Virus record (IMG/VR): IMGVR_UViG_2695420487_000015
Source: a virus
Lineage: Duplodnaviria > Heunggongvirae > Uroviricota > Caudoviricetes
Direction: 5' to 3' (one strand)
DNA length: 39,156 nt
Under the pieces are notes generated by a model. That model made no database searches, was not told where the DNA came from, and was given only the letters and a program-made list of their open reading frames with translations. The translations under genes were made by a program, and so were the position numbers. Shown here piece by piece: positions 1,831 through 25,268 of this stretch. Numbering within the stretch: the stretch's first letter is position 1; every line of letters begins with the position of its first letter.

Positions 1831-2049
1831 TCAGAGCCACAATGGCCGCTGACCACTCACCGACGGGTGAGGTGGCGCCGGAATTATTGTTCCCGGTGTA
1901 ACGATAAAACGTTCTACAGACTCCATCGTTACGAATGTGCAACTGCAATTAATATTCGTACATTGATGGTAACGCTCTTTAGTATTCTCGCTAAGATAGC
2001 GACTGGTACGAGCATGCGCTGCATGCTGGCATTTTGGACAATGGAACAT
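1831..2049 (-). CDS. ogr: Late gene transcriptional activator, Ogr/Delta zinc-finger family
   Basis: 72 aa, MFHCPKCQHAAHARTSRY...CTNINCSCTF, Cys4 pattern and strong similarity to P2 Ogr as recalled. Confidence 0.9.
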   Translation of the reverse strand: MFHCPKCQHAAHARTSRYLSENTKERYHQCTNINCSCTFVTMESVERFIVTPGTIIPAPPHPSVSGQRPLWL

Positions 2050-2088: not shown

Positions 2089-3282
2089 TCAGTTATTCAC
2101 CATTTGAGAACCACTTTCTTCCGACTCATATTCTATGCCAGAAAGCATAACCTCGAGCTCTACAGCCGTCGTGAAGCCATTCCCGCCTAGATTATGGGTC
2201 ACCTTACTGATTATCCACGACTGGTCGTCTATGACGCTTTTGAAGCCCGAGACCCTGACCGGCATTTCGGGATAAATATCTTCACGGCCGGTCGCCAGCA
2301 TGATCGAGAACTCCGCAACGCCACGCTGCAATTTATCCCACTTAGCCTGAGCCGCGCGCATCGCTTGCGCCTTTGTCGCGTAAATGGTCGTCAGTGCGAA
2401 AACATTGTCAGCCTCACCGGCCATATATTCACCCTCGCGGGCTTCCTGTTCTTTCTGCTTTTTGGCCGTGGTTTTACTGCTCACCGGTTTTGCTTTCGGG
2501 TGCTGTAGCGCCCGGAGGTGTTGCTCTTTGGGCTTACGCTTCAGCTTCACCGCTTGCTTTTGTTTCGCCGGTTTCGGGTCTTTAGTATGCAGCCACTTAG
2601 CGGTTACGCCGGTGTAAGCGCCCCGGTCGGCGATGGCAAACTGATGCCGGTCACCGTCACTGCGCTGGATGGTAATCTGAGGGATAGCTTTTCCGCTGGC
2701 CGTCGTACCACTTCCCGCTTTAAGCATCAGCAATTTACCCGCTTTGACCGATACCGCGCCGCCGTTGCGTTCCGCGAGGCGAGTCAGGAAAACAGCGTCG
2801 GATTCCTGCGACTGGTCGATATGCGGAATTTTTATCCCGGCAAGAGAGTCCGCGACGCTGGCCGTTAATTTATTACGGGCGGCTATCGCGCTGACAATAG
2901 CGCCGAGTGTGGTGTCGTGCCATGATTCCTCGCGGCGTGAATTGAGCGTTCCGCGAAAATCAGCGCTACGGGCGCGAATGGTCACCGTATCTGGCGCCCC
3001 CCGGTGCTCCACCTCATCGACGGTAAATCGCCCCTTACCAACGAGCGCGAAACCTTTCCAGCCGAGGTACAGCGACAACACCGCGCCCCTAATCGGCAGC
3101 GCGACAAGTCCGTCAGAATCATCGAGTTCAATGTCGAGCTGGTCAGCTTCAAAGCCCCGGTTATCCGTCATCGAGAGATTAATCAGCCGGTCGCTGATAT
3201 TGCCGGTGATATCTTTGCTTTCCAGTGTCAGCATAAAATCGGGCGTCAGTGTGGCCCCCGCGCCAGTGATAATATCCAGCAT
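2089..3282 (-). CDS. D: Tail protein D
   Basis: 397 aa; size and position after U/T match P2 gpD. Confidence 0.8.
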   Translation of the reverse strand: MLDIITGAGATLTPDFMLTLESKDITGNISDRLINLSMTDNRGFEADQLDIELDDSDGLVALPIRGAVLSLYLGWKGFALVGKGRFTVDEVEHRGAPDTVTIRARSADFRGTLNSRREESWHDTTLGAIVSAIAARNKLTASVADSLAGIKIPHIDQSQESDAVFLTRLAERNGGAVSVKAGKLLMLKAGSGTTASGKAIPQITIQRSDGDRHQFAIADRGAYTGVTAKWLHTKDPKPAKQKQAVKLKRKPKEQHLRALQHPKAKPVSSKTTAKKQKEQEAREGEYMAGEADNVFALTTIYATKAQAMRAAQAKWDKLQRGVAEFSIMLATGREDIYPEMPVRVSGFKSVIDDQSWIISKVTHNLGGNGFTTAVELEVMLSGIEYESEESGSQMVNN

Positions 3283-7209: not shown

Positions 7210-8397
7210 TTATTTGCTGTTGACGGACGAGATAAGATTCGCCAGATATTTATCGGTGATGCGCTGGCGTAAGGTCAGGTGCTCGAGTGGTGGCACAGGT
7301 GTATAGTCATAATCGATAAAAAGTTTCCCGGCCTTCAGGGTTTCTTTGCTGTTGGCCTCTTCGTCGAACCAGCACGTCGCATCGATGATGTAACCGCCGC
7401 TTTTCAGCTCGCGGAATTTCGCGTTGATGCCGTCGATAATGTCGCGAATCAGCGTCGCGGTGATGGGCTTATCGTTCGCCCACATATGCCCCTCGGCCAT
7501 TGTGTCGGCGATGACCTGTGCCGTGCGGGTGTAGTTCTCAAACTGAAACAGCGGGTCGTCGGAGCAATTACGGTTACCCCAGAAGCGAAAACCATCAGCA
7601 CGAATCAGCGTGGTAACACCGGCCTCATTCAGCAGGTCGGCATCGGTGCCTTTTTCCTGCAAATCCCAGAAGACGGACGCGCTGATACCGGTGACCTCAT
7701 TGACGCCGACGTTTGACAGGGTCTTGTGCCAGCCGGTGTCATTGTCAATTTTGGCGCGCAGACCCAGCGCAATGGCGGTCGCGTAGCTGGTCGTTGTGGC
7801 GCTGGCCGTGGTATCCCATCCGAGGAATTCAGGCCAGATAATCATGAGCTCACGCGCGCTGAAATTCTCACGATAGGCAATGACGTCAGAAATGGTTTTA
7901 CAGCCCCATGCGCTGACATAGGCGAAAGCGCGCAGTTTCTGAGCTACGGAGACAAGCGCGGTCGCCACCTGCTGAGTATCGAGACCCGGCACACCGAGAA
8001 TGCGGGGCTTCACGCCAGTGACCGCTTTCGCCGTTAACAGCGCTTTCAGCCCGGTGTATTTGCCGTTCTCATCCGTGGTGCCGATGATGTTCGAAATGGT
8101 TTGCTTCTGAGCCTCTTCGTCATCGCCGGTACCCTCTGCGACACGCACGACAACAACAACCGGTTTTGACTGGTTAGCGATGAGCTGTAAGGATTTTGCC
8201 AGGGTACCTTTAGTACCGGCTTTTGAGATGGCGCTTTGTGGATTGGTAATCAGCACCGGTTCATTGAGCGGAAATGCCCCGGCGTCAGCATCGCTGGCCG
8301 TGCAGACCATACCAACGACCGCTGTTGATACCGTCGAGATTGTGCGGGTGCCGTCGTTAATTTCGACGACCTCGACACCGTGATGAAAATCACTCAT
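7210..8397 (-). CDS. FI: Tail sheath protein
   Basis: 395 aa; size, position and sequence character match P2 FI. Confidence 0.9.
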   Translation of the reverse strand: MSDFHHGVEVVEINDGTRTISTVSTAVVGMVCTASDADAGAFPLNEPVLITNPQSAISKAGTKGTLAKSLQLIANQSKPVVVVVRVAEGTGDDEEAQKQTISNIIGTTDENGKYTGLKALLTAKAVTGVKPRILGVPGLDTQQVATALVSVAQKLRAFAYVSAWGCKTISDVIAYRENFSARELMIIWPEFLGWDTTASATTTSYATAIALGLRAKIDNDTGWHKTLSNVGVNEVTGISASVFWDLQEKGTDADLLNEAGVTTLIRADGFRFWGNRNCSDDPLFQFENYTRTAQVIADTMAEGHMWANDKPITATLIRDIIDGINAKFRELKSGGYIIDATCWFDEEANSKETLKAGKLFIDYDYTPVPPLEHLTLRQRITDKYLANLISSVNSK

Positions 8398-8528
8398 CCG
8401 TTTAACTCCGTTAGTTGGGGTGAGTGATATTGTCGGGTGTACATTTACAGGAGGCTATTTGTCAGGGTTCTGCGAACGCTGGCACAACAGATGAGAAGAA
8501 TAAAAAGCGAGCTTATGCCCGCCTTGCC

Positions 8529-10114: not shown

Positions 10115-10722
10115 GCGCTAACTCGCAGGTTATCAATCAGATGAATGGCCGAAGCCGGATAAAACTCACCACCGACGACAATTTCCCCGGCGGCATAGGG
10201 ATAAACGGTTAACAGGTCGCCGTCATAGCAGCTTGCGCCCACATAAGCGCGCCCGGCGGTGCTCAGGCTGATAGCGAGCCCGGTCAGGTGTCGGCTGGCC
10301 GGTTTTGCCCCTTCAATCAGTCGCTCGAGCTCGAGGTACATCTCATCGGTGATGCCTGTCTCGAGTACGCCCACCACAAGTCGGAAAGTTCCGGGCTCTT
10401 CGTTGAGCTCCCACCACTCCTTAACCTCAATCAGATAGCCCAGCGGCTCCACCACGCGCCGTAATGCGGCGATAGTGCCTTTATGGGCATGAACGTAAAA
10501 CGCGGAGGCGATAACGCTGCGTTTTGTCGCCTCCGGCCAGCTCTCATCCCACCGGTCAACCGAAAATGCCCACGCCAGATACGGCAGCAGCCGCACCGGG
10601 CAGGTGCGCCAGTTCCACAACGTGCGAAGCGGTACTGGTACACGCTCAATATCTGCGGCCGCGCGGGCGGCGGCGACCTCCAGCAGCGATGAGCCAACGG
10701 GCAACAGTCGGTTATTACTCAT
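10111..10722 (-). CDS. I: Baseplate assembly protein I
   Basis: Start at the internal ATG 10722 (MSNNRLLPVGSS...), matching the P2 gpI N-terminus and overlapping the J stop; the track's longer ORF is rejected. Confidence 0.85.
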   Translation of the reverse strand: MSNNRLLPVGSSLLEVAAARAAADIERVPVPLRTLWNWRTCPVRLLPYLAWAFSVDRWDESWPEATKRSVIASAFYVHAHKGTIAALRRVVEPLGYLIEVKEWWELNEEPGTFRLVVGVLETGITDEMYLELERLIEGAKPASRHLTGLAISLSTAGRAYVGASCYDGDLLTVYPYAAGEIVVGGEFYPASAIHLIDNLRVSA

Positions 10723-11627: not shown

Positions 11628-11975
11628 TCAACTCACAGGAATAGTCAGTGACAGGGTTTTGCCGGTGTCCCGGGCCTCGCCGGTCAGCTCAACAATCATC
11701 TGACCGTTAAACTGACGCTCGACCGTCAGCGAGCTGATGCTGATGCGCGGCTCCCACTTCAGCAGCGCCATATAACAGGCGCACATAATTTGCAGCCTCA
11801 GCGCGTCGGTCTGCGGCATATCAATCAGGGAGAACAGTAGCGAGCCATAATCGCGGCGCATCACGCGAGATCCAACCGGCGTTCGCAAAATATCGCCACA
11901 GCTCTGACGGATGTGATCGGCGTCAGTGATAGCTCGCCCTGTCTCGCGATTCATGCCGATATATCGGGTTGTCAT
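11628..11975 (-). CDS. W: Baseplate protein W
   Basis: 115 aa, the same length as P2 gpW. Confidence 0.85.
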   Translation of the reverse strand: MTTRYIGMNRETGRAITDADHIRQSCGDILRTPVGSRVMRRDYGSLLFSLIDMPQTDALRLQIMCACYMALLKWEPRISISSLTVERQFNGQMIVELTGEARDTGKTLSLTIPVS

Positions 11976-12613
11976 TTCGTCCCCTCCGTCCAGGCTCCAC
12001 CTCTTTGCACACCGCCGTGACCGTGGTCATCCACCACCACGCCATTTGATGAGAGTTTGCCGCCGGTGTGCTCGATATCGCCGCTCATCTTCCCGCCTTT
12101 GGTGACCTCGAGCGTGGCGGTCGTCAGTTTGTTGGTGCAGACAACTTCCGGGGTATCAAGGGTGATGCGGGTCTCGGCTTTCACCGTCACCAGCGGTACC
12201 GTCGCGATGATGGAATCCGACGCCGTAACGTCTGCGGTTTTAATACCGCTCACGGTCAGCGCGCTGGTCTCCGGCTCGTACTCGATAACAGCCCCGTCAG
12301 GAAAGGTGATGTGAAAAGCATCAGCCGACACCGACGGCGCGGGGTGTTCATCCGAAAAAATGCCGGGTAGCACAAAAGCCGTGTCCAGCTCACCACCGAC
12401 GGCCAGCAGTAAAACCTGCTCACCCACAGACGGAGCCCACCAGACACGTGAGCGACCGGCGCGCGCAGTCAGCCACTGAAGCCAGTCGGTAACAATGCCG
12501 CCAGTCTGGACGCGACAGCGCCCGTCATCGAGGCCAACCTCGACAATAACGCCGGTTCGGATCAGATTGCGAAGGAGGCGCTGAATGTCCTGAAGAGTGG
12601 ATTGTGTTTTCAT
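11972..12613 (-). CDS. V: Baseplate spike protein V
   Basis: 213 aa, ...GRCRVQTGG..DWLQWLT..AG.SR.WWAPSVGEQVL motif shared with P2 gpV. Confidence 0.85.
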   Translation of the reverse strand: MKTQSTLQDIQRLLRNLIRTGVIVEVGLDDGRCRVQTGGIVTDWLQWLTARAGRSRVWWAPSVGEQVLLLAVGGELDTAFVLPGIFSDEHPAPSVSADAFHITFPDGAVIEYEPETSALTVSGIKTADVTASDSIIATVPLVTVKAETRITLDTPEVVCTNKLTTATLEVTKGGKMSGDIEHTGGKLSSNGVVVDDHGHGGVQRGGAWTEGTK

Positions 12614-12660
12614 GCTGGGAAGGATGAAGGAAAAACACCTTCAATGTAATTGAGCGGTGT

Positions 12661-12678
12661 TGTATGCTTTTTAGTACA
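12661..12678. promoter_or_regulatory. TGT-N12-ACA dyad, candidate Ogr-type activator site in the divergent V / cargo-gene intergenic region
   Basis: Exact TGTatgctttttagtACA read in sequence; P2-family late promoters use this dyad (recollection). No equivalent exact dyad was found in the P-O or G-FI intergenic regions, so chance occurrence is possible. Confidence 0.3.
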
Positions 12679-12698
12679 ACTTCAAGAGGATAACCAAA

Positions 12699-13412
12699 TT
12701 GGATAACAAGGAATATCAGAGGCACTTTGGAATAATAACTGATGAATTACAAAAGCCTTCCGATAAACATTTGAGAGCATTTACGCAGGTTGCTGACATT
12801 AGAAAGTTTGAAATTGAGATGTATTGGAAAAGAGCTACGTATTTCTGGACCATTATTGCTATTACTTTTACTGGTTATTTTGCTTTAGCCTCCGCAAATA
12901 GCTTTCCGTTCAAAAATGCATTTTCTCTTTTGCTTTCCAGTATGGGATCCGTTTTTACTCTTTCATGGTTTTTGGTAAACAGAGGTAGCAAATACTGGCA
13001 GGAAAACTGGGAAAATCACTTAGACCTGATGGAAAACGGCATAACTGGGCCGCTCTATAAAACTGTACTCTCACGACCGTCAGTCGAAGCCAAAAAAAAC
13101 GCACCTCAACTTGCGAGTACTGATAAAGATTTTATCGACAAACATATCACCGGCCCCAAAAAAATATCAGCATCCAAAATTAACCAATTAGTTGCATTTT
13201 ACTTGCTTGGCATATGGTTAATATTAGTAATGACAACAATTACTAACATCTTAAAACTATCATTCTGGAGTGAATCCACGATAGAAGTAGTGTTGAGCGT
13301 GGGAGTTTTAATTTGGTCAGCAATAGCCACTAGTTTAATGTTTTGTAAGTCAGCCACCTATACAGGAATACAGACTTCAGAGGCAAGAAAACGCTCTTCG
13401 AATTTGTTATAA
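12699..13412 (+). CDS. Cargo gene: predicted four-helix membrane protein of unknown function
   Basis: AT-rich ORF with four hydrophobic segments. Track start is a TTG at 12699 preceded by AAGAGGA; the first ATG is at 12819. Lies between tail genes V and S. Confidence 0.6.
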   Translation: MDNKEYQRHFGIITDELQKPSDKHLRAFTQVADIRKFEIEMYWKRATYFWTIIAITFTGYFALASANSFPFKNAFSLLLSSMGSVFTLSWFLVNRGSKYWQENWENHLDLMENGITGPLYKTVLSRPSVEAKKNAPQLASTDKDFIDKHITGPKKISASKINQLVAFYLLGIWLILVMTTITNILKLSFWSESTIEVVLSVGVLIWSAIATSLMFCKSATYTGIQTSEARKRSSNLL

Positions 13413-13680
13413 CGTTGGTGATACACTAATAAATTCATTTAAAGCCCTCAGTTTTGGGGGCATGTAATCTCTACTTTCTCACGGAAAGAGAGTCCAGGAT
13501 GTACACCAGCGCTTGACGCGGAAAGCTAGTCACTGGTGGCAATACTGCGGGTGCGACATAGACTACGCAGGAAGCGCACAATATCCGGAAAGTAGGTTGT
13601 GTTTTCGTGTGGGAAAGGATGCCGCCTTAGAAGATCGGCGGCAATAGAGGTATGCAGTTCTATCTCTGGTAAAATTTTGT

Positions 13681-14757
13681 TTATTTTCGTTTGCCATAAG
13701 ACTGGGTTAGAATCGGAGTAATATCCTTAGTAAAGATATCTAGTCTTTCTTTTTCGGCTGAGAAAACATACTGTCTGGCTTGAATTACATTTTGCCTACT
13801 AATTAAGTTTGACACCTTTTCTGGTTTGCTTAGTGCAACTTTGGCACCCTTGAATATCAACGCTAAGCCCGGTGATATTGTAAAAATACATCCATTATCA
13901 AATGAAAAATCATTTTTTAAGAAAATAAAAGGAAAATCACTTGAAACAATGGCATATCCCTTAGGTGCTGAGTACAAATATACCCTACAACTACTCTCAT
14001 TGGTGATTGAGGAAAAAGGTAACGCCATAAATCTATGCATCTTTCTAAGTAAGTAAAACATTTCCCTCCGCTGTCCGCTGTCCGCATTAACTAGATACGT
14101 TCCTCCCTCCTTTAGTATAGATAACAAAGACCTCCATTCAGAACGTGGGATTATGCTCGCACCAGAAGGAATGAGATCCTTATTAGTATTCAGTACTTTC
14201 TTGATGGTGGTGTTTATATTTTTTAATTTTGGCATGGAGCCTTTATCAAAAAAATCATCCATACCTTTGTTTCTATAACATAAAAAACGGGCCATGAAAA
14301 TTGCCATGTTTTTTAAATCGTTGAAATCAATCTCATGCAAACCACTACATACTATCGAACGTGCGAATTTTTTTTCCGAAAGCTTGCCAAGCAACCAGTG
14401 TCTACGCACGAAATAATGACTACCTGAAGCATTTTTAAAATGCTCCTTTAATTTATAAAATTGCCACATTGCGTCTACAAAATCAGGGTAACAATCCTCT
14501 AGTATTTTAAAACTGTCCTCAATAAAGTTATCTCTATCCCCATCAATATAAAGAGTATGCCTTCGCTCTTGACCACAAATTTTTGTGGCATTAAGAAAAG
14601 TAATCCTTTCTTTTATTTGCTTTTTGGTGGCATCTGTTTTCACAAAACCATAAACAGTATCTTTCCCAGTCTTTGGGTCTTCAGATGTTATTTTAAAATG
14701 CCTGATATAAGTTGCAGGCAGATAATGCTGATAGTTTTGAAAAGTTCCCTTTGACAT
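13681..14757 (-). CDS. Cargo gene: DUF4238-like protein, candidate single-gene anti-phage defense protein
   Basis: AT-rich, 358 aa from the ATG at 14757, preceded by GGAGG and only 13 nt after the S stop. N-terminal HYLPATYIRHF resembles the DUF4238 signature as I recall it. Confidence 0.6.
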   Translation of the reverse strand: MSKGTFQNYQHYLPATYIRHFKITSEDPKTGKDTVYGFVKTDATKKQIKERITFLNATKICGQERRHTLYIDGDRDNFIEDSFKILEDCYPDFVDAMWQFYKLKEHFKNASGSHYFVRRHWLLGKLSEKKFARSIVCSGLHEIDFNDLKNMAIFMARFLCYRNKGMDDFFDKGSMPKLKNINTTIKKVLNTNKDLIPSGASIIPRSEWRSLLSILKEGGTYLVNADSGQRREMFYLLRKMHRFMALPFSSITNESSCRVYLYSAPKGYAIVSSDFPFIFLKNDFSFDNGCIFTISPGLALIFKGAKVALSKPEKVSNLISRQNVIQARQYVFSAEKERLDIFTKDITPILTQSYGKRK

Positions 14758-14770
14758 AGTAACCTCCAAT

Positions 14771-15223
14771 TTACCAAGTCATAATTTTTTTAATGATAAT
14801 ATATTCAACCTCTTCAGTTAAATCATTATTGAAACCAATGAGTGGTCGAGTGGGGTATTCAATCCGTCTGCTGTTAATGTTTGGGGCATCCTTTAACCCG
14901 TACTGATGCACCTTAGCCATACGCTGTACCTTGCCGGTAAATTCCACGACCGCCGCGTTATTCCCCGCCGTGGCTTTCATAAAGCGACTGGTACGGAGTT
15001 TGGCGAACATTTCCCGCTTAACCCGGCCTTTTTTGGCTTTTACCGGCTGGCGTTTTCGGGCGGCGTAAGGTGTCCCGTCCGGGGCTTTCTGCGTTTTAAT
15101 CCGGCGCTGTTGACGGGCTCGCAGGGTCTTCGCGATATCTGCGGCCATTCTGCGACGGGCGGCAGGTGACAGCGCCGCTATCAGCCCCGCGAGCTTATCG
15201 TCAAAGGGTTTAAAGTCATTCAT
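14771..15223 (-). CDS. S: Tail completion protein S
   Basis: 150 aa; position and size as in P2. Confidence 0.8.
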   Translation of the reverse strand: MNDFKPFDDKLAGLIAALSPAARRRMAADIAKTLRARQQRRIKTQKAPDGTPYAARKRQPVKAKKGRVKREMFAKLRTSRFMKATAGNNAAVVEFTGKVQRMAKVHQYGLKDAPNINSRRIEYPTRPLIGFNNDLTEEVEYIIIKKIMTW

Positions 15224-19650: not shown

Positions 19651-20514
19651 TTAGCAGTCGGTCAGGGTGGAGCCCGCCGAATCACCGTCACCACCGGTGC
19701 TTAACTTGCGGCGCGCCTGTGATTTGCTTTCGGTGTTTTCCAGCGTGGTAGTCAGGGTACTGAATTGCTGCGAGGTGGCGTCGGCCTGTTCGGCCAGCGC
19801 TTTTTTGACGTCGGCGAGTTCTGTTTCAATTGCGCTGAAACGCATCTCGGCGCTTTCACCGCCGGTCTGTACCCGCTCAGCGATGGCGGTCACGGCTTCA
19901 TGTACATCACCGAAACGCGCATCGTCGTCAGTCTGTTTACGGCTGAAGATGCCTTTCACGGTGTCACTGAGTTTGCTCAGCAGGGTGTCGGGCAGGTCTT
20001 CGAATTCCAGCTCGGCAGGGGTTGCCACTGAGAACAGGTCGCCCGGCTGGTCTTTCTTCCCGGCCAGTGGGTTTTGTTGTGCGCGGGAACAGAATTGCAG
20101 GTATTCGGTACCGAGGCTCGCCGGGTCGTCGGTTACCGCCAATCCGATGAGGTGACACTTGCCTGTGTTGGCAAAGTTCGGGCGAATTTCCATCGAGGTG
20201 TAAACCTTCTGGCCTTTCGCCAGCATTGCGAGCAGGTTGTCGAGCGGGGCAATTTTGCCGAACAGCGCCAGTTTGCCGTTTAGCGCCGAATCGTCGTCGA
20301 TCACTTCTGCTTTCACTTCCGTGACGTCGCCATAACGGCAAAACTGGCCATCGGGAATAACGCTGCGGATATGCTCGAGGTTAATGCGACAGCCGTAGAC
20401 ACGCGGGTCAAAGCCGTTTGCCATATCCTGAATATCGGTCGCACTGATGACGCGACCGTCGCAGGTGTCCCCCTCTACGCCGATGCGAAACCATTTCGAA
20501 ATTTTTTTAGCCAT
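19651..20514 (-). CDS. O: Capsid scaffolding protein O
   Basis: 287 aa; position and size as in P2. Confidence 0.85.
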   Translation of the reverse strand: MAKKISKWFRIGVEGDTCDGRVISATDIQDMANGFDPRVYGCRINLEHIRSVIPDGQFCRYGDVTEVKAEVIDDDSALNGKLALFGKIAPLDNLLAMLAKGQKVYTSMEIRPNFANTGKCHLIGLAVTDDPASLGTEYLQFCSRAQQNPLAGKKDQPGDLFSVATPAELEFEDLPDTLLSKLSDTVKGIFSRKQTDDDARFGDVHEAVTAIAERVQTGGESAEMRFSAIETELADVKKALAEQADATSQQFSTLTTTLENTESKSQARRKLSTGGDGDSAGSTLTDC

Positions 20515-20678
20515 GAGTCAGGTGTCCTGAGTTGGGTTATCGGGTCGGATGTAGTTTCCCGACTCCCTCCCTCGCCAGCCACCGGTTACAGAAGTGCAAC
20601 CCCTGACACAACAGAGGGTTAGCGATTCCCTCCCCCTGAATCTTTAGCCTTGCCGTGTACTCATCACAGTGAGGTTTT
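20515..20678. promoter_or_regulatory. Divergent late promoter region between O and P
   Basis: 164-bp intergenic region between divergently transcribed O and P operons; individual promoter elements were not resolved. Confidence 0.5.
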
Positions 20679-22448
20679 ATGACTACTACCAATGACACAT
20701 CACTACTCAGCGACCCGCGACGACAGGCCGCGCTTTTGTTCTGGCAGGGCTATTCCGTGCCACAAATCGCGGAGCAGTTACAGGTCAAGCGCCCCACGGT
20801 GCAGAGCTGGAAACAGCGCGATAAATGGGAAGAGACCGCCCCGTTAAACCGGGTTGAATTCACGCTTGAGGCACGGCTGATTCAGCTCTACGCAAAGCCC
20901 GACCTGACGGCTCACGACTTTAAGGTCGCGGATTTTCTGGCGCGCCAGATGGAGCGCCTCGCGCGGGTTAACCGCTACGGCCAGACCGGCAACGAAGCGG
21001 ATTTAAACCCGAACGTGGCCAACCGCAACAAAGGGGAAAAGAAGAAGCCGAAAAAGAATTTTTTCAGCGAAGAGGCTATCGAGAAACTCGAAGAGATTTT
21101 CCTCGAGCAGTCTTTCGACTATCAGCTCGAGTGGTGGCGCGCGGGGCTGGCGCACCGCATCAGGCACATCCTGAAATCGCGACAGATTGGCGCGACGTTC
21201 TATTTTGCGCGTGAGGCACTGTTACAGGCGCTGAAGACAGGCCACAACCAGATATTTTTATCAGCCAGTAAGACACAGGCCTACGTGTTCCGAAAATACA
21301 TCATCGCCTTTGCCCGACAGGCTGGCGTTGAACTCACCGGCGACCCGATTGTGCTCGGCAACAATGGCGCGGAGCTGATGTTTCTCGGTACCAATGCCAA
21401 CACCGCACAGAGCCACAACGGCGACCTGTATGTCGACGAAATTTTCTGGATCCCCAACTTCCAGAAACTGAAGCGTGTCGCCGGGGGTATGTCGTCACAG
21501 GAGCATTTGCGCACGACCTATTTTTCGACCCCCTCATCGCTGGCGCACGGAGCTTACCCGTTCTGGTCGGGTGAGCAGTTCAACAAGGGGCGCTCAGACA
21601 AGAGCGAGCGAGTCGATATCGATATCAGTCACGCCGCACTCGCGAGGGGCGTCGCCTGTCCTGACGGCCAGTGGCGACAGATTGTCACCATCGAGGACGC
21701 ACTCGCCAAAGGGTGCACGCTGTTCAACATCGATACGTTAAAGCGCGAGAACAGTGTCGATGAGTTCCGCAACCTGTTTATGTGCGAGTTCGTCGACGAT
21801 AAAGCGTCGGTATTCCCGTTCGAAGAGCTGCAACGCTGCATGGTCGACAGCCTCGAGAAATGGGAGGACTACGCGCCATTTGCCGACAGGCCATTCACTC
21901 ATCGTCCGGTGTGGATTGGCTACGACCCGTCATTACGTGGCGACAGCGCCGGATGCGTCGTTATCGCGCCGCCAGTCGTTGCCGGTGGCAAATTCCGCAT
22001 CCTCGAGCGCCACCAGTGGAAAGGGATGGACTTCGCCCAACAGGCCGAATCCATTCGCGAGCTCACGCAGAAATACACTGTGGAATATATCGGTATCGAT
22101 GCGACCGGGCTCGGTCAGGGCGTCTTCCAGCTCGTGCGCTCGTTCTACCCGGCCGCGCGTGAAATCCGCTACACGCCAGAAATGAAAACCTCAATGGTGC
22201 TCAAAGCCAAAGACACCATTCGCCGCGGTTGCCTCGAGTACGACGTCAGCGCAACCGATATCACGCAGTCGTTTATGTCTATCCGCAAAACCATGACCAG
22301 CAGCGGGCGCAGCTCGACCTATGAGGCCAGCCGCACCGAGGAAGCCAGTCACGCCGATCTCGCATGGGCAACCATGCACGTATTAATCAATGAGCCGCTG
22401 ACCGCCGCGACCGGTGAGCAGTCATCCAGCATCATGGAGTGGAACTAA
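20679..22448 (+). CDS. P: Terminase large (ATPase) subunit P
   Basis: 589 aa, GAGG RBS 4 nt upstream; size and sequence match P2 gpP. Confidence 0.9.
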   Translation: MTTTNDTSLLSDPRRQAALLFWQGYSVPQIAEQLQVKRPTVQSWKQRDKWEETAPLNRVEFTLEARLIQLYAKPDLTAHDFKVADFLARQMERLARVNRYGQTGNEADLNPNVANRNKGEKKKPKKNFFSEEAIEKLEEIFLEQSFDYQLEWWRAGLAHRIRHILKSRQIGATFYFAREALLQALKTGHNQIFLSASKTQAYVFRKYIIAFARQAGVELTGDPIVLGNNGAELMFLGTNANTAQSHNGDLYVDEIFWIPNFQKLKRVAGGMSSQEHLRTTYFSTPSSLAHGAYPFWSGEQFNKGRSDKSERVDIDISHAALARGVACPDGQWRQIVTIEDALAKGCTLFNIDTLKRENSVDEFRNLFMCEFVDDKASVFPFEELQRCMVDSLEKWEDYAPFADRPFTHRPVWIGYDPSLRGDSAGCVVIAPPVVAGGKFRILERHQWKGMDFAQQAESIRELTQKYTVEYIGIDATGLGQGVFQLVRSFYPAAREIRYTPEMKTSMVLKAKDTIRRGCLEYDVSATDITQSFMSIRKTMTSSGRSSTYEASRTEEASHADLAWATMHVLINEPLTAATGEQSSSIMEWN

Positions 22449-23952: not shown

Positions 23953-25170
23953 TTAATTAGCTTTATCAAGGCGTCCCCCCACCACCATCCGCTTGTAATT
24001 TATTGCGAACAACTTAATTTTTTCAGGGAACTTTGACGCCAAAATTATTGACTTTCTGTCTACATATGAATAAAAGGGCATTGATATCAAAATAGTTATC
24101 ATCGAAGTTAAGATAAATGTAACAAACGCACCAACGGACGGCGACGCAATGTTTTTGTAAACCCAAAAACCAACTATAGATATAACAAATGGATGAAGCA
24201 AGTATATTGAAAATGACAACTTCCCAATAAACAAGACTACATTTTTGCTCATCCCCCTTAAACATCTCCCATTCACAAAGACAGAAGCAATAATCAAAAA
24301 AGAACCAAGCGATATTGTAAACTCTGGCCATTGTATTAATATACCGCATTGAAACTGAAGGTAGAGGTAAAATTCAACCAGATCTTTATACGCAGTGCTC
24401 GCCGGTGCATACCCAACAAGATAAAGGCCAATAAACAACATAAGAAGCGATACAAACTTTCTTAACCGTCCATTATTTTCACTTATCTCGAAAGTTGATA
24501 AAAACACACCAGAAAGGAAAAGCCCATAATAAATTACATTAATACTACCAGACAAAAACATGCAAACAAATGAAATAAACGACAACCAGCGAAGAATGGT
24601 CTTGTTCTCACCAAACAGAGATATAAATCCGTATACCAATATAGAACCAAAAAACTCAATACTAATAGTCCACAGAACATAGTTATACTTTATATTACCA
24701 AAAAGCATAGCGCCAAATGAAGCATCCCATATGGCTGACACTATATTCCCATCAAAACTAAACGCAGTCATTAACGGCATTGATGCAGCGGGGCTATCCT
24801 TATCCGGAAAAAAGCCCAACAACATTATAAAATAGCAAATAATCACAGATGCTGCTACGGGAACCCCAAGCCTAATGTATCTCTTCAATGCTGATGCTTG
24901 TATATAACGTATTTCGTTATTATTTTTTTGGCAACTCAGTGACAAAACCAACCCGCTCAAAACAAAGAATAAGCTAACAGCAGATCCCCCCTTATAGAAA
25001 AAAGTAAAAGGGCTATTAAATAAATTTTCTTGCCACTTGCTATCAAACATACTGCCAGAATGCACCGAAGGTATAAACATTAAAAATGAATGCGATAAAA
25101 CGACAGCCATGGCTGCCACACCTCTTATCCCATCAAAGATTTTTACATTATTTCTCTCATTATCACTCAT
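23953..25170 (-). CDS. Cargo gene: acyltransferase family 3 membrane protein (O-antigen/LPS acetylase type)
   Basis: AT-rich, 405 aa, about 10 hydrophobic segments, N-terminal DGIRGVAAMAVVLSHS motif typical of acyltransferase-3; sits in the cos-to-A interval, the P2 tin/old slot. Confidence 0.75.
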   Translation of the reverse strand: MSDNERNNVKIFDGIRGVAAMAVVLSHSFLMFIPSVHSGSMFDSKWQENLFNSPFTFFYKGGSAVSLFFVLSGLVLSLSCQKNNNEIRYIQASALKRYIRLGVPVAASVIICYFIMLLGFFPDKDSPAASMPLMTAFSFDGNIVSAIWDASFGAMLFGNIKYNYVLWTISIEFFGSILVYGFISLFGENKTILRWLSFISFVCMFLSGSINVIYYGLFLSGVFLSTFEISENNGRLRKFVSLLMLFIGLYLVGYAPASTAYKDLVEFYLYLQFQCGILIQWPEFTISLGSFLIIASVFVNGRCLRGMSKNVVLFIGKLSFSIYLLHPFVISIVGFWVYKNIASPSVGAFVTFILTSMITILISMPFYSYVDRKSIILASKFPEKIKLFAINYKRMVVGGRLDKAN

Positions 25171-25268
25171 GCAAAAAACCTTTTATAATAAAAAATGTCA
25201 TTTCGATTAACGTATTGTATTGGTTATTATTGTGTTATAACTGACAATCAACCTTAAAAAAACGCGGC

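Follow-up and report, generated by a model that had tools for sequence, protein, structure and literature searches.

A palindrome upstream of gene V in a P2-like Escherichia coli prophage is the probable Ogr site of the pV late promoter

The 39,156-nt window analysed here (the whole stretch of DNA) is a P2-like Escherichia coli prophage that carries its own ogr gene. We conclude that a perfect palindrome in the gap between gene V and a divergent membrane-protein gene, ripA, is very probably the site at which Ogr acts on the pV late promoter, with a V start that would be leaderless and with ripA served by an overlapping promoter of its own. Every feature of the P2-family late promoter class that can be read from sequence was found here, which would make the dyad the orthologue of the Ogr-dependent pV promoter of phage P2, and thus an element that is already understood; the class was defined decades ago. 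Transcription from P2-family late promoters depends on Ogr and on the C-terminal domain of the RNA polymerase alpha subunit (the rpoA109 phenotype).

The dyad and its setting

The layout of the prophage is as follows.

1831-2049, minus strand: ogr, the cognate late activator, a 72-aa zinc-finger protein (CX2CX22CX4C; Pfam Ogr_Delta, E = 8.7e-23)
2089-3282, minus strand: D
7210-8397, minus strand: FI
11972-12613, minus strand: V, baseplate spike, first gene of the V-W-J-I-H-G late operon (Pfam Phage_base_V, Phage_spike and Apex), with the late genes H, I, J and W on the same strand
12699-13412, plus strand: ripA, cargo gene for a RipA family octameric membrane protein (PGAP name; Pfam 8xMP, E = 3.6e-36)
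13681-14757, minus strand: second cargo gene, for a DUF4238 protein, starting 14 nt after the S stop codon
14771-15223, minus strand: S, followed by R
19651-20514, minus strand: O
20679-22448, divergent from O: P
30803-31810: integrase

Five complete E. coli genomes share the stretch from 12400 to 13500 at 100% identity. V is closest to the V proteins of PSP3 and 186 (78% identity). The ogr gene is intact, and its product is 65% identical to P2 Ogr, with cysteines at positions 4, 7, 30 and 35; a C4 zinc-finger activator gene in the same element as the dyad is a feature of the promoter class. At the A-Q hotspot, the classical P2 old/tin position, the low-GC Acyl_transf_3 gene (23953-25170, minus strand) is a typical O-antigen-modifying conversion gene and not a recognised defence system; PADLOC returned no match for it.

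The dyad lies in the 85-bp gap (12614-12698) between the V ATG, whose A is at 12613 on the minus strand, and the TTG start codon of the membrane-protein gene at 12699 on the plus strand. A sequence-only reading of this DNA had reported an exact, palindromic TGT-N12-ACA dyad in this divergent region, and both descriptions hold: TGT at 12661-12663 and ACA at 12676-12678 flank a 12-nt spacer (ATGCTTTTTAGT), and the symmetry extends further, to arms of 6 bp.

12659-12680, no strand: perfect palindrome GTTGTA-N10-TACAAC (arms GTTGTA at 12659-12664 and TACAAC at 12675-12680), proposed Ogr-family activator site for pV

The motif as such is no rarer or commoner in the 39-kb window than chance predicts, with eight occurrences against 8.54 ± 2.76 expected from shuffled sequences. 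From the shuffle rate of ~2.2e-4 per position, the chance of a match anywhere in the 85-bp gap is ~1.5%; for the one or two registers that the family uses, it falls to ~4e-4. The dyad is therefore non-random by position, while its count is at chance level. That count is the one point in favour of reading the dyad as a chance palindrome, or as an RNA hairpin or terminator, with no role in activation. We consider such a reading highly improbable: the register relative to V is exact and is kept in at least 80 relatives, and, folded as RNA, the dyad gave no notable hairpin relative to shuffled sequences (z = -0.8 and -0.9), with neither a T-run nor a terminator-like site found near it by scanning. 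A hairpin or terminator was rejected on the basis of this unremarkable folding energy and the lack of a terminator call. In a scan of all contigs in the collection with GTTGTATGMTTTNNNNNACAAC as the query, the matches listed were chance matches only, with 0/120 loci near ripA or V, and the scan is uninformative on the distribution of the site.

The pV promoter and a leaderless V start

TGT-N12-ACA is the consensus for the four P2 late promoters pP, pO, pV and pF (PMC3931495), and the dyad matches this partial-dyad element exactly (12661-12678), directly upstream of V-W-J-I-H-G and in the orthologous position to its counterparts in relatives. In the RefSeq record of P2 (NC_001895), the pV activator site is annotated at 10239-10266, and the V coding sequence and the transcription start of the V operon are both placed at 10308. 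With its annotated transcription start on the first base (A) of the V ATG, the V mRNA of P2 is leaderless; PMC4633059, which deals with leaderless translation, cites Christie and Calendar (1985) for P2 genes of this kind. The P2 TTGT begins at 10242, 66 nt ahead of the V ATG at 10308, and the TTGT on the minus strand of the window begins at 12679, also 66 nt ahead of the V ATG (A at 12613). Measured from the centre of symmetry at 12669.5, the dyad lies 56.5 nt ahead of the first base of the V start codon, and the centre of the P2 site is 55.5 nt upstream of the annotated start, the start in the window being taken from P2. The sequence-only reading had noted a match to the activator site of P2-family late promoters, which the position of the dyad, orthologous to the annotated P2 pV site, supports. 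It had also objected that the geometry fits neither direction cleanly. That difficulty is gone because the P2 V start is leaderless: in the V direction the fit is exact.

Between the dyad and V, we read a core promoter that is poor at both hexamers, as is expected of the class.

12621-12649, minus strand: weak pV core promoter (sequence reading), with a -35-like TTACAT (12649-12644), a 17-nt spacer and a -10-like CATCCT (12626-12621)

A standard scan called no sigma-70 consensus promoter on the minus strand at 12614-12700, which is expected of an activator-dependent promoter. The motif CATCCTT directly upstream of the V ATG is kept across relatives. No purine-rich Shine-Dalgarno sequence precedes the V ATG in the window (CCTTCATCCTTCCCAGC-ATG), and the same is true across the family and in P2. 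Since the V ATG has no Shine-Dalgarno sequence, a leaderless V mRNA is predicted, with the pV start predicted at or near 12613. In late lytic growth, Ogr would bind the site, whose centre lies ~56 nt ahead of the V start codon, and recruit RNA polymerase to the weak TTACAT-17-CATCCT core through the alpha subunit, a mode of recruitment that is established for P2; transcription would begin at, or within 1-2 bases of, the A of the V ATG and yield a leaderless V-W-J-I-H-G mRNA, as in P2.

We aligned on the V ATG the upstream regions of 80 IMG/VR loci with V relatives (75-95% identity); the window, P2 and the IMG/VR relatives together gave 71 unique pV upstream regions. TTGT begins at -66 in 32/71 and at -65 in 38/71 of these (70/71 together), and at any other given position in no more than six. 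The register is also found in 11/11 further ripA-linked P2-like phages (-66 or -65). Beyond about -68, the sequences of different phages are unrelated. In the closest E. coli relative of the backbone, whose V DNA is 89% identical, the cargo is another gene (DUF4062), which is co-directional and ends 8 nt before TGTTGT; the TTGT there is at -66. Because the sequence beyond about -68 is unrelated and the TTGT register is kept next to differing cargo, the site is part of pV, not of the cargo; because conservation stops at about -68, the cargo hotspot begins immediately past the activator site. Also conserved among the relatives are a -35 region resembling AATTGCC and, immediately ahead of the ATG, GGCATCCTT; of these the window retains CAATTAC and CATCCTT. 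Taken with the register relative to P2 and the presence of ogr, this family-wide conservation argues that the dyad serves the V-to-G operon, one of two roles that the sequence-only reading had offered for it. A GC-rich, hairpin-like inverted repeat (TTGCCGCCGG...CCGGCGGCA) lies between the pV -35 and -10 regions in most relatives (L002-L081; -40 to -1 of V), and AT-rich sequence takes its place in the window and in ripA-linked relatives.

The proximal half of the site in the window is atypical for pV. ACA at N12 occurs in 0/70 unique non-ripA pV regions; it occurs at N10 in 23 and at N11 in two (P2 included), and at none of N8-N14 in 43. Among the pV regions compared, only a ripA-linked subclade has the exact GTTGT-N12-ACAAC palindrome. 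A single origin may account for this, as may the need for a stronger Ogr site in the face of a competing second promoter, or a role as an operator.

Two further activator sites in the window were located by homology to P2.

8462-8491, minus strand: pF activator site (cTGTTGTGCCAG...), with TTGT starting at 8487, 66 nt from the pF start (~8421) inferred by P2 homology
20584-20615, minus strand: shared pO/pP activator site (cTGTTGTGTCAG...), with TTGT starting at 20611, 65 nt from the pO start (~20546) inferred by homology

The two regions (cTGTTGTGCCAGCGTTCGCAGAACC for pF and cTGTTGTGTCAGGGGTTGCACTTC for pO/pP) align with the pF and pO/pP sites of P2. Both contain cTGTTGTG, at -66 (pF) and -65 (pO/pP), where the P2 values are 66-68 and 65. 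Their 3' half-sites are degenerate, with AGA (pF) and ACT (pO/pP) in place of ACA; P2 has CCA in both. The earlier statement that no matching dyad was found at the other late promoters is not supported: the cTGTTGTG half-sites are present at the expected distances, and the 3' halves are degenerate as they are in P2.

We also scored both strands of the 39-kb window with a position weight matrix trained solely on the pV sites of other phages. The pF site ranked first, the pV dyad second and the pO/pP site tenth. The score of the pV dyad (15.2) was matched by the best match in 4/20 mononucleotide shuffles, so the sequence of the pV site is not decisive by itself. The third-best match (ATTATTGTGTTATAACTGACAATC; 25226-25255, plus strand; score 10.0) falls in a low-GC stretch between the acyltransferase gene and gene A; its score is within the range of the shuffles, and it is probably a chance match.

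ripA and the cargo side of the site

The ripA gene starts with TTG at 12699, preceded by the Shine-Dalgarno sequence AAGAGGA (12684-12690), and the PGAP annotation uses the same TTG. RipA residues M1, Y6 and F10 do not vary among 23 aligned homologues (down to 43% identity); M41, encoded by the next in-frame ATG, is not conserved and is leucine in many of them. The TTG start, which is conserved, therefore appears to be genuine. An internal start that would give a shorter RipA isoform from a supposed late transcript beginning inside the gene was rejected, M41 not being conserved and TTG 12768 having no Shine-Dalgarno sequence.

The start codon of ripA is +29.5 nt from the centre of the dyad (+33 to +37 in the ripA-linked loci L095 and L093). 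Because the distance is so short, a start of the -55 type would fall at ~12725, ~26 nt inside the ripA reading frame (codon 9). A site of the shared pP/pO type has a transcription start ~55 nt to each side, followed by a leader and a start codon, and no such arrangement is found at ripA. The sequence-only reading had suggested as its other option that the dyad might place the membrane cargo gene under late control; this suggestion is not supported, since a late start would lie within the conserved N-terminus: with the geometry known for Ogr, ripA could not be activated as a late gene.

It is accordingly very unlikely, in our judgement, that the dyad is a bidirectional late promoter at which Ogr, bound to a symmetric site, activates both ripA and V and confines the membrane protein to the late phase. 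One site does serve the divergent pP and pO promoters in the P2 record, with starts 56 and 55 nt to either side; the perfect palindrome is found only in ripA-linked pV regions; and an intact ogr sits beside truncated V (V'), the dyad and ripA in two remnant lineages. Against these points stand the position of the -55-type start inside ripA, in L095 and L093 as in the window, the invariant residues and concordant PGAP start that fix the N-terminus, the lack of conservation of M41, and the ordinary -10 elements (TATAAT, TATACT) that lie between site and gene in distant ripA-linked phages.

By our preferred reading, in which the dyad is the Ogr site of pV, ripA would be transcribed from a constitutive sigma-70 promoter of its own, for which there is one candidate.

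12640-12668, plus strand: candidate sigma-70 ripA promoter, with TTCAAT (12640-12645), a 17-nt spacer and TATGCT (12663-12668); predicted start ~12675
12631-12680, no strand: 50-nt conserved block, 47-49/50 identical (94-98%) between four ripA-linked lineages

In the 200 nt ahead of ripA in the window, no sequence other than this candidate promoter reaches 7/12 matches; at 7/12 the candidate is weak, and a standard promoter scan did not call it. Its -10 element overlaps the V-proximal half of the dyad. The element recurs in 6/6 lineages examined (as TATGAT in L089; L272 also has TATGAT), although these six ripA-linked lineages probably share one junction origin and are hence not independent, and it persists as GTTGTATGCTTT in phages whose RipA is only ~50% identical. 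In ripA-linked phages that are more distant, TATACT or TATAAT abuts the site on the outside, and a -35-like GACACA overlaps the distal half-site. The 50-nt block encloses both the candidate promoter and the palindrome. In this block the locus departs from a simple Ogr site: between the ripA-linked lineages, third codon positions are only ~55-58% identical in ripA for most pairs (68% and 77% for two closer pairs) and 47-67% identical in V, and the pV -10 region (12614-12630) is identical at 10-13/17 positions. A constitutive sigma-70 promoter that overlaps pV is most likely the source of ripA transcription, and the divergent pV and ripA promoters are likely to overlap, to judge from their sequences. 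Ogr bound at the dyad would then occlude ripA, not activate it.

The same arrangement invites the proposal that the dyad is mainly an operator for ripA, with Ogr or another dimeric regulator covering the -10 element and the start and shutting down the membrane protein late in the lytic cycle. The dyad covers both the candidate -10 (12663-12668) and the predicted start (~12675), the spacer as well as the arms is conserved within the 50-nt block, and only ripA-linked regions have the exact N12 palindrome; symmetry of such unusual perfection would serve repression, as a function added to the pV role and not in place of it. The proposal rests wholly on a weak promoter prediction, however; shared ancestry together with the constraints of pV could explain the conservation, and in more distant ripA-linked phages the -10 lies outside the site. 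On balance we regard it as unlikely, if worth entertaining. We are doubtful, too, of an extension in which the block at 12631-12680 acts as a two-way switch: ripA would be expressed from TTCAAT-17-TATGCT in the lysogen, and Ogr, supplied by induction of the prophage itself or by a superinfecting P2-like phage, would bind the palindrome over the ripA -10 and start, turning RipA off and V on. If such a switch were real, remnants that retain only ogr, V', the dyad, ripA and a partner gene would amount to domesticated circuits responsive to P2-type late activators.

The cargo island between S and V is low in GC (~0.38 against ~0.57), and within it (12614-14770) ripA on the plus strand and the DUF4238 gene on the minus strand are convergent. 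A single-gene DUF4238 system from a P2-like hotspot protects against T7 (PMC9122126). We found no function for RipA/8xMP in the searchable literature. PADLOC and NCBIfam gave no match for either S-V cargo protein; a PDB sequence search gave none for the DUF4238 protein and only spurious ones (designed or GPCR helices) for RipA. A megablast search with 11900-14900 found no match in the phage collection. No terminator was predicted between S and the DUF4238 gene (14757-14830), where P2 has one after S, and late transcripts of the pO operon probably extend into the DUF4238 gene. The 3' end of S contains a sigma-70-like promoter (TTAACT-17-TATCAT, 14821..14793, minus strand).

Relatives of ripA (83-90% identity, from Pantoea, Enterobacter and metagenomes) all adjoin V or V', and their partner genes vary. 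The partner is DUF4238, an AAA_15/21 ATPase with a 225-aa protein, or a 179-aa protein, and some lineages have none; intact prophages of the Serratia type carry ripA as their sole cargo. Degraded remnants (L087-L091) have lost their tail genes, and ogr lies close to V', an intact dyad and ripA. The ogr gene in these remnants (L087, 2125-2340; L088, 929-1144; L089, 1469-1687; also L090 and L091) is intact and encodes a 72-aa protein that is 71% identical to that of the window. Its retention may be due to chance or may reflect an Ogr-responsive circuit that has been kept.

A crude ORF test found a divergent ORF upstream of V in 13/68 unique IMG/VR loci. Divergent cargo starts 5-20 nt past the pV activator site in P2 (orf30; 10224-10266) and in unnamed ORFs of L228 and L233 (203-330) and L048. 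Because the cargo starts so close to the site, genes inserted divergently from V, P2 orf30 and ripA among them, must have promoters that overlie the pV control region, and this overlap could couple the expression of a defence or conversion gene to the late switch. For annotation, our analysis fixes pV and a predicted leaderless start in this family of E. coli prophages, places the left edge of the S-V cargo hotspot directly past the activator site, at about -68, and corrects a tempting misreading: RipA is not positioned as a late gene.

Comparison with known late promoters

Late promoters of the same upstream dyad type, served by the same family of zinc-finger activators, are known from 186 (B), PSP3 (Pag), phiR73 and P4 (Delta; psid and pLL). 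The pV regions of the 186 type differ from that of the window in having ATATTGTGTGAGCC... without a recognisable 3' half. At the P2 pP/pO site (3057-3087), whose orthologue in the window is at 20584-20615, a single Ogr site lies between divergent genes, as it does between V and ripA. By contrast, both genes at pP/pO start more than 75 nt from the site, which leaves room for a start at ~55 nt and a leader, whereas only the V side does so at V/ripA. A transcript that starts on the A of its ATG has precedents in lambda cI mRNA made from pRM and in P2 V; the V start in the window is predicted, from P2, at the same place and likewise lacks a Shine-Dalgarno sequence.

The closest parallel is P2 pV itself. 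The two loci share the gene order S, cargo, site, V; the half-site with GTTGT at -67 and TTGT at -66; a V gene with no Shine-Dalgarno sequence; an ogr gene in the same element; and a divergent cargo gene that starts 15-19 nt past the site, which in P2 is the non-essential orf30, 15 nt past it. They differ in the site, which is TGT-N11-ACA in P2 and an exact TGT-N12-ACA with 6-bp arms in the window; in the core, which is AT-rich in P2 and reads TTACAT-17-CATCCT in the window; and in the cargo, since orf30 and ripA are unrelated and a direct comparison of P2 Orf30 with RipA showed that the two proteins are not homologous.
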